From a virus (taxonomy: Duplodnaviria; Heunggongvirae; Uroviricota; Caudoviricetes): a stretch of 55,363 nt of DNA. The stretch lies in IMG/VR virus record IMGVR_UViG_2721755498_000004, one strand, 5' to 3'. The position numbers and the translations under genes were made by a program. Under the pieces are notes generated by a model. The model saw only the letters and a program-made list of their open reading frames with translations, was not told the DNA's origin and searched no databases. Positions 33,172 to 37,468 of the stretch are shown piece after piece (the stretch's first letter is position 1; the number at the start of each line of letters is the position of its first letter).

Positions 33172-33471
33172 ATGACAAAAACAGTATCAACCAGTAAAAA
33201 ACCCCGTAAACAGCATTCGCCTGAATTTCGCAGTGAAGCCCTGAAGCTTGCTGAACGCATCGGTGTTACTGCCGCAGCCCGTGAACTCAGCCTGTATGAA
33301 TCACAACTCTACAACTGGCGCAGTAAACAGCAAAATCAGCAGACGTCTTCTGAACGTGAACTGGAGATGTCTACCGAGATTGCACGTCTCAAACGCCAGC
33401 TGGCAGAACGGGATGAAGAGCTGGCTATCCTCCAAAAGGCCGCGACATACTTCGCGAAGCGCCTGAAATGA
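33172..33471 (+). CDS. insE: IS3 transposase OrfA
   Basis: [32 protein letters not shown]... recognised as IS3 InsE; ATG 9 nt inside the track ORF, which starts at GTG 33163. Confidence 0.9.
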
Positions 33472-34334
33472 AGTATGTCTTTATTGAAAAACATCAGGCT
33501 GAGTTCAGCATCAAAGCAATGTGCCGCGTGCTCCGGGTGGCCCGCAGCGGCTGGTATACGTGGTGTCAGCGGCGGACAAGGATAAGCACGCGTCAGCAGT
33601 TCCGCCAACACTGCGACAGCGTTGTCCTCGCGGCTTTTACCCGGTCAAAACAGCGTTACGGTGCCCCACGCCTGACGGATGAACTGCGTGCTCAGGGTTA
33701 CCCCTTTAACGTAAAAACCGTGGCGGCAAGCCTGCGCCGTCAGGGACTGAGGGCAAAGGCCTCCCGGAAGTTCAGCCCGGTCAGCTACCGCGCACACGGC
33801 CTGCCTGTGTCAGAAAATCTGTTGGAGCAGGATTTTTACGCCAGTGGCCCGAACCAGAAGTGGGCAGGAGACATCACGTACTTACGTACAGATGAAGGCT
33901 GGCTGTATCTGGCAGTGGTCATTGACCTGTGGTCACGTGCCGTTATTGGCTGGTCAATGTCGCCACGCATGACGGCGCAACTGGCCTGCGATGCCCTGCA
34001 GATGGCGCTGTGGCGGCGTAAGAGGCCCCGGAACGTTATCGTTCACACGGACCGTGGAGGCCAGTACTGTTCAGCAGATTATCAGGCGCAACTGAAGCGG
34101 CATAATCTGCGTGGAAGTATGAGCGCAAAAGGTTGCTGCTACGATAATGCCTGCGTGGAAAGCTTCTTTCATTCGCTGAAAGTGGAATGTATCCATGGAG
34201 AACACTTTATCAGCCGGGAAATAATGCGGGCAACGGTGTTTAATTATATCGAATGTGATTACAATCGGTGGCGGCGGCACAGTTGGTGTGGCGGCCTCAG
34301 TCCGGAACAATTTGAAAACAAGAACCTCGCTTAG
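33468..34334 (+). CDS. insF: IS3 transposase OrfB (DDE domain)
   Basis: 288 aa, recognised as IS3 InsF; overlaps orfA as expected for the -1 frameshift fusion. Confidence 0.9.
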
Positions 34335-34364
34335 GCCTGTGTCCATATTACGTGGGTAGGATCA

Positions 34365-35593: not shown

Positions 35594-35873
35594 TTCTCAA
35601 TCTCTCGATGGCGCAGCGCAGCAGATGCCAGTTGTTCAGGCTGACGAATAAAGTATAAATAAACTGGCTATGGTGTAAAGCCCCACATAGCATGAACAAA
35701 CACTACATATCAAATAGCTGGTACAAGGATAGAAATACGACATTTATTATTAAAAACGATTAGATAAATTACATTTTAATGTTATGCAAAAGTTCTTTTT
35801 TATCATAACATTTCAATAAAAGCATTACAGATGCAATCATCCCGTCATCATCAATTATTTAAGGTGGTTAAAC

Positions 35874-35960
35874 ATGGAAAATAACAAGTTCGCACATCTC
35901 GCTCCTTTTTTATCCGTAATCCTTTTCGCTTGTTGTTTTATATGGGCATTATTTTTATAA
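35874..35960 (+). CDS. candidate small hydrophobic membrane peptide (28 aa)
   Basis: Hand-found ORF MENNKFAHLAPFLSVILFACCFIWALFL preceded by AAGGTGG at 6-nt spacing, in a 790-bp AT-rich stretch with no other ORF. Confidence 0.35.
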   Translation: MENNKFAHLAPFLSVILFACCFIWALFL

Positions 35961-36406
35961 AGTAGCCACATGATAAGTTGCTGGAATCATATTTCCCACT
36001 CAAGTCATTAACATTTGATAAGATATATCTAAAAGGACGCCTTTACATTATTTATGTGTATATAATTTATTTATATACACAGTAAAGGTATCCTGGGAAA
36101 ATATTTATCGTTAAAAAATACATCATAAATAATTAAGCTGAAATTTCAGAACACAACTAATACACACAATAAGGTTCAGTAACAATAATCTATGTGGACT
36201 ACATCGAGATTTTTTGATTAAACTTTAATAACTTATTCCTAACACACAGAATGCATAAACTAAAAGTAAAACAAATAGTTATACGAAAAACAACCATATT
36301 TATTATATCTTCTCCTCTAATCAACATATCAATTATGTGTTTCATAACAGCTTGACATAACCCTCAAAAACACGCATTTATAATGCATGTTTTTGATGAG
36401 GTGGTT

Positions 36407-36811: not shown

Positions 36812-37468
36812 GTAAATATATTGGTTCTACATTGACAGGAGACTTCAACCATAAGAAGTAATCTGAATACTTGAGCAATAAATTTACTTAAGATTAATGA
36901 GCGCACCTTGCCGGACAAAGATAAACCAAGGTAACACCTTTTTTCTAGCCAGTATGTAATCAATCAGAAAGCCGCTCCATAAGAACAACAGCAAGACAAT
37001 AAATTGCCATTACAGCCGCAATAGCTAGCGCACATTTGAGAACCAGCACGACAACCTCCTGTATTGGACGTACACCAGTTCTGATAAATATGAGGCTGTC
37101 TCATCATTGATTCAATATAACTATTGGGTATAGTTTCTGTGATTTTGTTCTGTAGAAATGGAACACAACAACCAGTCACCACCAGCACTTCTTTAAATAC
37201 GCCAAGTCCGACGCAAGCTAACCTTCTAGTCCGCTTTGAGCGAGGAGCGGACCAAACCCGGCCAACTGACTCTTAAAGGGGCCGCAGGAATTTTTCGTCT
37301 GAACTTTCGAAGCTCCTCTCCCTGAAGACAGAAAACTTCTGTGTGCTGTGGGAATATTGAATCTTTGCCTTAGATATAAATAATTTTATCCCGCCTGAAG
37401 TTTACATTATTTTATTTATCTGTTTTTCTAAATCAGACTGCACTCCTTACTTAAATCAGGAGCCAGTC

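Follow-up and report, generated by a model that had tools for sequence, protein, structure and literature searches.

A conserved 28-codon reading frame at the edge of a prophage cargo slot in Escherichia coli, very probably an unrecognised gene for a small predicted membrane protein

The AT-rich DNA between the nin genes and the cargo genes of a Rac-type lambdoid prophage of Escherichia coli very probably holds a genuine protein-coding gene that had previously gone unrecognised. The prophage is the window, that is, the whole 55,363-nucleotide stretch that was analysed (IMG/VR record IMGVR_UViG_2721755498_000004), and the gene is an open reading frame (ORF) of 28 codons on its plus strand (35874–35960), which starts with the ATG at 35874, closes with a TAA ending at 35960 and specifies MENNKFAHLAPFLSVILFACCFIWALFL. 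To judge by the substitutions that separate related copies, purifying selection acts on the peptide sequence, and it does so in this frame specifically. As far as the collections searched can tell, what is new is an uncatalogued gene for a small prophage membrane protein, outside every protein and RNA family examined; the kind of gene is in itself unsurprising.

The reading frame, its surroundings and the catalogues

The ATG at 35874 is the earliest start codon downstream of an in-frame stop. It is preceded by the Shine–Dalgarno (SD) sequence AAGGTGG (35861–35867, plus strand), from which it is separated by the 6-nt spacer TTAAAC. The initial annotation, made from the letters of the window, had described a hydrophobic ORF of 28 codons with this motif six nucleotides before its start and had predicted a single transmembrane helix. 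Translation and hydropathy confirm the coordinates, the length and the hydrophobic character, the motif lies where it was reported, and the best Kyte–Doolittle mean over 19 residues (2.46) fits the predicted helix. As a matter of composition only, the peptide is compatible with one membrane helix reaching the C-terminus: about eight polar residues form a short N-terminal segment, and residues 9–28 make up the hydrophobic helix. Among the first five peptide variants, 18 of the 28 residues are invariant, and P11, C21 and W24 are unchanged. Substitutions in the helix across variants mostly exchange hydrophobic or small residues (A/V/T, F/L/C/G/S, I/V/A and L/V); the exceptions are L9Y, Gly or Ser at position 20 and one F12S variant. 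The SD reads AAGGTG in most lineages and AAGGTA in the locus L049, and the Qin-type lineage has a weaker form, AAAGTG or AAAGCG.

The gap in which the ORF lies, from the start of the DUF1367 gene (35593) to the DUF1971 gene, measures 789–813 bp with 25–35% GC, in agreement with the roughly 790 bp first given, and the DNA on both sides stands at about 50%. The DUF1971 ORF runs from 36383, and the start assigned by PGAP corresponds to 36407. The ORF had also been called the only coding candidate of the gap. Seven ATG ORFs of at least 28 codons are present when both strands and nested starts are counted, so the description holds in a narrower form: this ORF is the sole one with an SD match. When the gap was shuffled 2000 times with dinucleotides preserved, 14% of the products had an ATG ORF that reached 28 codons or more and carried a 5-nt SD match, and 3% had one that was hydrophobic as well. 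Hydrophobic ORFs are known to be common in AT-rich intergenic DNA through composition alone (PMC11188072). Taken by itself the ORF is weak evidence for a gene, barely beyond chance, and because it hardly exceeds the shuffled expectation, the case for a gene rests on comparison with other copies.

Two further frames in this DNA were considered and set aside. An antisense ORF of 38 codons (35855–35971, minus strand) is interrupted by stop codons in other lineages and is not a conserved frame. A 48-codon ORF on the minus strand (36199–36345), also hydrophobic (MKHIIDMLIRGED...) and distinct from the SD-matched ORF of the gap scan, is kept only in near-identical relatives, is longer in some of them and carries amino-acid-replacing changes; no evidence for coding was found in it.

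Existing catalogues do not contain the peptide. It had been called unannotated, and no feature lies beneath the match in any of the RefSeq E. coli matches listed. A collection of some 15 billion proteins contains no exact copy of the peptide in any of the three variants searched. The earlier statement that no known family could be recognised holds for Pfam, NCBIfam, PHROG and PADLOC alike: hmmscan of two variants against Pfam-A and NCBIfam, with E-values up to 10 admitted, returned no Hok/Gef, Ldr, TisB, ShoB, Ibs, DinQ or Zor, and matching against PHROG and PADLOC gave no family, all PHROG matches having E ≥ 0.1. One match to a Borrelia lipoprotein family (E = 0.03) was regarded as noise. Rfam models run over 2.6 kb surrounding the site produced no match with E under 1.8 and no antitoxin RNA. 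Text searches of the literature for the peptide and for PFLSVILF found no occurrence, and the peptide was not found in the accessible parts of the supplements to an O157:H7 Sakai Ribo-seq small-gene paper or to an Enterobacteriaceae microproteome preprint, an outcome that leaves absence from either source unproven. The usual minimum of gene callers lies above 28 codons, and the gene has never been catalogued because its 28 residues fall below the size that such programs report.

Conservation, selection and module architecture

The ORF belongs to a module of about 230 bp (35738–35965, plus strand), carried by lambdoid prophages of the Rac and Qin types in Escherichia and Shigella, that extends from 136 nt before the ATG to 5 nt beyond the stop. 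Its limits were set with the locus L049, the most diverged copy: blastn of L049 positions 620–880 matches E. coli genomes across query positions 24–251 only. This copy has other surroundings, with a tail-fibre gene and integrase remnants nearby, and what it has in common with the rest is only the interval from −136 to stop+5; likewise, homology of the window type to other lineages ends a few bases after the TAA. Of 5426 complete E. coli genomes, 1175 match the 228-nt stretch delimited in this way and have one or two copies of it each. The module is also present in four induced phages as well as in Shigella and E. ruysiae, and among species representatives outside E. coli it was found only in Shigella flexneri and E. 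ruysiae. Two matches in a plasmid collection were discarded as plasmids, their records of about 4.8–4.9 Mb being evidently chromosomes. In E. coli K-12, Qin has ydfU-rem at the corresponding place and Rac has lost the nin region by deletion; the module is in neither, so small-protein studies in K-12 have missed it.

A megablast search with positions 35600–36400 against the same 5426 genomes gave matches in 851, and in 366 of these the match is about 76% identical, covers query positions 1–362 only and ends at the stop codon of the ORF. In four such loci that were inspected, the ORF is intact with SD, ATG and TAA in register, and the DNA beyond is unrelated, consisting of IteA/IteS, hokD-relBE, a Sll1717-type ATPase or DUF1971-hok-KilA-N.

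Two samples of loci were drawn without the ORF as bait, one anchored on the DUF1367 protein and the other on the upstream block. Among the 70 DUF1367-anchored loci with enough upstream sequence, 53 have homologous upstream DNA, and all 53 hold an intact frame of exactly 28 codons; in the remaining 17 this position is taken up by unrelated DNA, be it hok directly, rem or another sequence. From the block-anchored sample, 118 of 120 loci were judgeable by sequence length, and the 28-codon ORF is intact in every one. No frameshifted, truncated or extended copy occurs among these 53 and 118 loci, which do not represent independent events because the two sets overlap in contigs. At least 15 peptide variants and at least 18 distinct nucleotide versions are represented; most copies fall into a few near-clonal groups, and the diversity comes from about three deep lineages. 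Conservation in related prophages, which the initial annotation had left as a check on its candidate, was examined in this way, and the ORF proved intact in every homologous copy examined.

The substitutions are distributed as in a coding frame. The ORF has 6 variable sites at first, 9 at second and 17 at third codon positions (p = 0.016), and pN/pS in the ORF frame between deep lineages is 0.12–0.37 (Fisher p = 5.9e-6 for the window versus L049 and 1.6e-4 for L049 versus L050), statistics that draw on few independent substitutions because only about three deep lineages supply the diversity. Four control frames gave pN/pS values of 0.5–6, mostly about 1, and none significantly below 1. An antisense frame that shares the wobble positions yields a similar signal, but it contains stop codons in other lineages. 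Between the window and either lineage B or L049, the 5′ UTR is 55–60% identical with 2–5 gap columns, whereas the ORF is 78–84% identical with no indel, and about 1% of simulated ORFs drifting at the UTR rate remained intact. Synonymous change is almost absent from the last six codons.

The most conserved part of the module lies upstream of the ORF, not in it. A 44-nt block (35743–35786, plus strand; CTTATTATTAAAA..G.TTA...AAATT..ATTTTAATGTTATG) is 86–93% identical between deep lineages, which exceeds the identity of the ORF. This block is probably the promoter and transcript start. A candidate promoter within it combines a −35 element TTATTA (35747–35752), a 17-nt spacer and a −10 element TACATT (35770–35775). 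The pair TTATTA-17-TA(A/C)ATT is present in 67 of 69 unique modules and is the sole promoter-like pair on the plus strand in nearly all copies; with 7 of 12 matches it is weak, and matches of this kind are common in AT-rich DNA such as that around it. The block is conserved beyond the needs of a simple promoter, which hints at a further layer, for example an RNA element or a protein-binding site. It is followed by a conserved stem-loop (35778–35812, plus strand), in which AATGTTATG and CATAACATT enclose 17 nt and a small stem forms at the apex. Changes in the basal stem are confined to G-C/G-U exchanges that preserve pairing; the sequence of the apical stem is particular to each lineage yet still pairs, two of its pairs having changed on both sides. 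Folding energies do not decide the strand of this stem-loop, which would stand first in the mRNA were transcription to start from the candidate promoter. The remaining leader of about 60 nt is variable and unstructured.

Folding of the leader together with the ORF gave no significant structure (MFE z-score −0.17), and no sequestration of the ribosome-binding site (RBS) is predicted: the consensus structure has −8.4 kcal/mol and leaves the SD essentially open. A 5-bp pairing of the start of the block with the SD is predicted and is too weak to rely on. On the minus strand, a promoter-like site at 35948–35976 (TTATCA-17-AATAAT, 9 of 12 matches), a candidate only, would read back into the ORF. 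A −35 element TTATC(T/A) or TTCATC with the −10 element AATAAT recurs at the 3′ end of the ORF in many lineages, and the −10 is destroyed in the L002/L009 lineage by GCG GTA codons. A second site of this kind lies over the start codon (TTTCCA-16-TATGAT, 9 of 12). No terminator for an antisense RNA was found, no antisense promoter and terminator pair is conserved in all lineages, and the only direct repeat found, of 10 nt, does not suit a divergent trans-antitoxin. The search for a nearby antisense sRNA that had been proposed at the outset gave no convincing candidate: there are weak minus-strand promoter-like sites, and neither a terminator nor an Rfam match was found.

Prophage context and the cargo slot

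The region is identical in strain 165, where it is annotated on the minus strand. On the nin side, this annotation has DUF1133 (Q-like), DUF1364 and DUF1367, and beyond the gap it has DUF1971, an MFS transporter, gamma-glutamylcyclotransferase (GGCT), LysR, DUF2254 and a BCCT transporter. Past the BCCT gene follow DUF977 and a gene annotated only as hypothetical protein, in whose place ydaV, a replication gene, is found in other loci. The module adjoins the nin/Q genes, and the stop codon of the ORF forms the left edge of a slot in which cargo and defence genes are exchanged. Its left neighbour varies, being DUF1367 in Rac-type loci, a 92-aa ORF with ydfU in Qin-type loci and an IS2 insertion in L039, where an IS2-like element (1520–2793) separates DUF1367 from the module and both module and ORF are intact just beyond it. 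To the right of the stop codon, the DNA falls into at least 14 sequence classes, and the hairpins found there differ with the cargo.

The swap point can be placed at 35961 onward by comparison of the window with L002, L003, L004, L005, L008 and L009, the cargo differing by strain. The types seen are DUF1971+MFS+GGCT+LysR+DUF2254+BCCT in the window and, in other loci, IteA/IteS, hokD-relBE-ydfV-flxA, a Sll1717-type P-loop ATPase and DUF1971+hok+KilA-N. IetAS context was sought in the Vassallo preprint, which offered nothing useful. In most lineage-B loci the ORF is convergent with hok, whose terminator hairpin starts about 20 nt past the stop, and relBE is adjacent. The small ORF is found with and without hok, and hok is also found without the small ORF.

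Orientation sets the ORF apart from the neighbouring phage genes: two induced phages with the module, vB_EcoS-666R9 and vB_EcoS-683R6, have every one of their replication, nin, Q and lysis genes on the strand opposite to it. Outside the module, a divergent promoter-like site on the minus strand (35652–35679; TTTACA-16-TATACT, 10 of 12 matches) stands 60–85 nt upstream of the DUF1367 start. Apart from L049 and the IS-disrupted L039, no lineage shows any variation in this stretch. Because it is unchanged even in Qin-type loci, where the first gene differs, it suggests that the nin/Q genes have a promoter of their own downstream of the cargo slot.

Several features of the surrounding DNA were observed in passing. 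An IS3-family element (about 33200–34347, with a transposase ORF at 33468–34334) interrupts the DUF1133/Q-like antiterminator gene of the window, which is intact in strain 165 (543 bp), and because of this interruption the window prophage is probably unable to switch on its late genes. The cargo-side AT-rich DNA contains a perfect 11-bp inverted repeat with a 5-nt loop (36055–36081; TGTGTATATAA TTTAT TTATATACACA), and related sequence is present in L005-type loci. The interval between DUF1971 and the MFS gene (36960–37190) resembles DNA upstream of hok in L050, with similar spurious ORF translations, and is probably the remnant of a hok locus displaced by cargo. In K-12 Qin, an unannotated ORF of 92 codons lies between ydfU and rem (L006 1307–1585, minus strand), and a clear homologue adjoins the small-ORF module in Qin-type loci (L050 2456–2866).

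Possible functions and biological meaning

The reading that we favour, with a chance somewhat better than even once the functional class is included, is a moron-type small inner-membrane protein made in the lysogen. The comparisons directly support a gene under selection, the limits of its module, its position and its orientation, and the mechanism proposed here would be built on these. The module would be a self-contained unit of upstream block, 5′ stem-loop, variable leader, SD, 28 codons and stop, in which the block would act as a weak sigma-70 promoter. Transcription in the lysogen would most likely start from this own promoter, as in a moron or lysogenic-conversion gene, because the gene points against the early-right operon (replication, nin, Q and lysis). 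Translation would begin at the exposed SD, and the peptide would insert in the inner membrane through its 20-residue helix with the conserved Pro11, Cys21 and Trp24. There it may touch, helix to helix, a membrane protein of the host or the phage and in this way serve as a modulator or an exclusion factor, presumably not as a classical RNA-controlled toxin.

The lambda morons bor and lom, HK97 gp15 and the YnaM and YnfT genes of Rac and Qin are likewise accessory, placed in an orientation of their own, lower in GC and patchy in presence; for the small ORF, presence or absence at the same position in related phages (53 versus 17 of the 70 loci) and a GC content (28–35%) lower than the roughly 50% of the nin genes were both seen. 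YnaM, a hydrophobic protein of 37 residues from the same prophage, is similarly tiny but has no sequence relation to it. A second group of parallels is provided by MgtR, MgrB, AcrZ and MgtS, single-pass peptides of about 30–50 residues that act through helix contacts, have an exposed RBS and have no antitoxin. These are chromosomal and tied to a defined regulon or partner, whereas the present gene is phage-borne and polymorphic for presence, and no partner, regulon or co-varying neighbour of the small ORF was identifiable. H-NS frequently silences AT-rich DNA that E. coli has acquired horizontally, which would count against expression in the lysogen, and the weakness of the candidate promoter and the degraded SD of the Qin-type lineage also speak against the moron reading. 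Three facts are left unaccounted for by a simple moron model: the over-conserved block, the near-absence of synonymous change in the last six codons and the company of hok and relBE.

These same facts bear on the alternative of a new type I toxin, in which the peptide would damage the inner membrane and an antisense RNA would restrain its synthesis, either as a minus-strand sRNA in or next to the ORF or through early-right read-through. We consider this unlikely. The E. coli type I toxins ShoB and Ibs (19–26 residues) share with the small ORF its very short length, a polar N-terminus followed by a C-terminal helix, a location in unannotated AT-rich intergenic DNA and a small transcription unit of its own, which is putative for the small ORF; there is no sequence similarity between them, ShoB and Ibs are chromosomal while this gene sits on lambdoid prophages, no OhsC- or Sib-like RNA was detected here and the leader is not strongly structured. 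Toxin–antitoxin genes are near neighbours in most lineage-B loci, where the ORF converges on hok about 20 nt from its terminator and beside relBE. The recurrent minus-strand sites at the 3′ end (TTATCx-17-AATAAT) and over the start codon would suit an antisense RNA, an upstream block conserved above the ORF is what would be expected where a toxin leader overlaps its antitoxin RNA, and the nearly silent last six codons and the weakened SD of one lineage can be read in the same sense. Against this, the families and antitoxin RNAs of Pfam, NCBIfam and Rfam give no match, the antisense −10 is lost in L002/L009, no antisense terminator was found, the single 10-nt repeat does not fit a divergent trans-antitoxin and the peptide has no charged tail. 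Type I toxin mRNAs are usually structured, with a sequestered RBS; here the RBS is exposed and the mRNA is not unusually structured. The Hok/Gef type (hokD) is also a small membrane peptide gene of the same Rac/Qin region, adjacent and convergent in most lineage-B loci, but it has about 50 residues, a periplasmic domain, an overlapping mok, a Sok antisense RNA and a long folded mRNA, all of which the small ORF lacks, and the two share no similarity. Since the searches for a family, an Rfam RNA, an antisense pair and RBS structure found none, it is size and hydrophobicity that carry the toxin reading at present, and the moron reading is preferred to it because no antitoxin RNA could be identified, no SD-hiding structure was predicted, no known toxin family matched and the antisense −10 is lost in one lineage. 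A bolder proposal, which we hold to be doubtful, is a new RNA-regulated, Escherichia-specific membrane toxin or phage-exclusion peptide that would mark and guard the conserved edge of the slot for cargo and defence genes in Rac/Qin-type phages, with the 44-nt block and stem-loop as its control element (the target of an antitoxin RNA or a repressor operator) and with convergent transcription into the 3′ end of hok coupling two membrane toxins.

It is improbable that the frame is no gene at all and merely a by-product of T-rich DNA conserved for other reasons, such as a regulatory region of nin/Q, an RNA element, or recent shared ancestry or recombination. The ease with which hydrophobic ORFs arise in AT-rich intergenic DNA (PMC11188072), the 3% of shuffles that equal this one, the few near-clonal groups that hold most copies and the still better conservation of the adjoining non-coding block would all be accommodated by such an origin. 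A non-coding artefact nevertheless fits poorly because the substitution pattern is frame-specific: changes favour third codon positions, and the synonymous excess is significant in the ORF frame only. In addition, no copy has an indel or stop in the ORF next to a diverged, indel-bearing leader, and the start, the stop and mostly the SD are kept in three deep lineages and at least two genomic contexts. Still less probable is a leader or regulatory ORF, in which ribosome traffic and not the peptide would control downstream transcription or RNA stability, acting on co-oriented cargo (DUF1971 here) or on the 3′ end of a convergent hok mRNA. Such a role would agree with the constant position directly at the slot border, with the co-oriented DUF1971 gene 420 bp downstream in the window and with the short distance between the stop and the hok terminator hairpin (about 20 nt) in hok-linked loci. 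It fits poorly because selection acts at the amino-acid level (pN/pS 0.12–0.37, and 18 of the 28 positions identical across the first five variants), which a pure leader would not need, and because the downstream genes are wholly different between loci and mostly convergent. DUF1971 moreover has its own RBS and promoter-like region, the 420-bp spacer lies outside the conserved module and no attenuator-like alternative structures were found.

As a gene for a small moron-type membrane protein, which remains the preferred reading, the ORF would mean that about one fifth of sequenced E. coli genomes carry a conserved membrane protein gene that is missing from annotation pipelines and protein databases. 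It sits where Rac/Qin-type prophages swap defence, toxin–antitoxin and transporter cargo, and its stop codon offers a landmark by which this slot may be located elsewhere. If the peptide is toxic or excludes phages, the biology of prophages and their hosts would gain a new family of small proteins; if it is a benign modulator, it would provide a clean test case of purifying selection on a protein of 28 residues.
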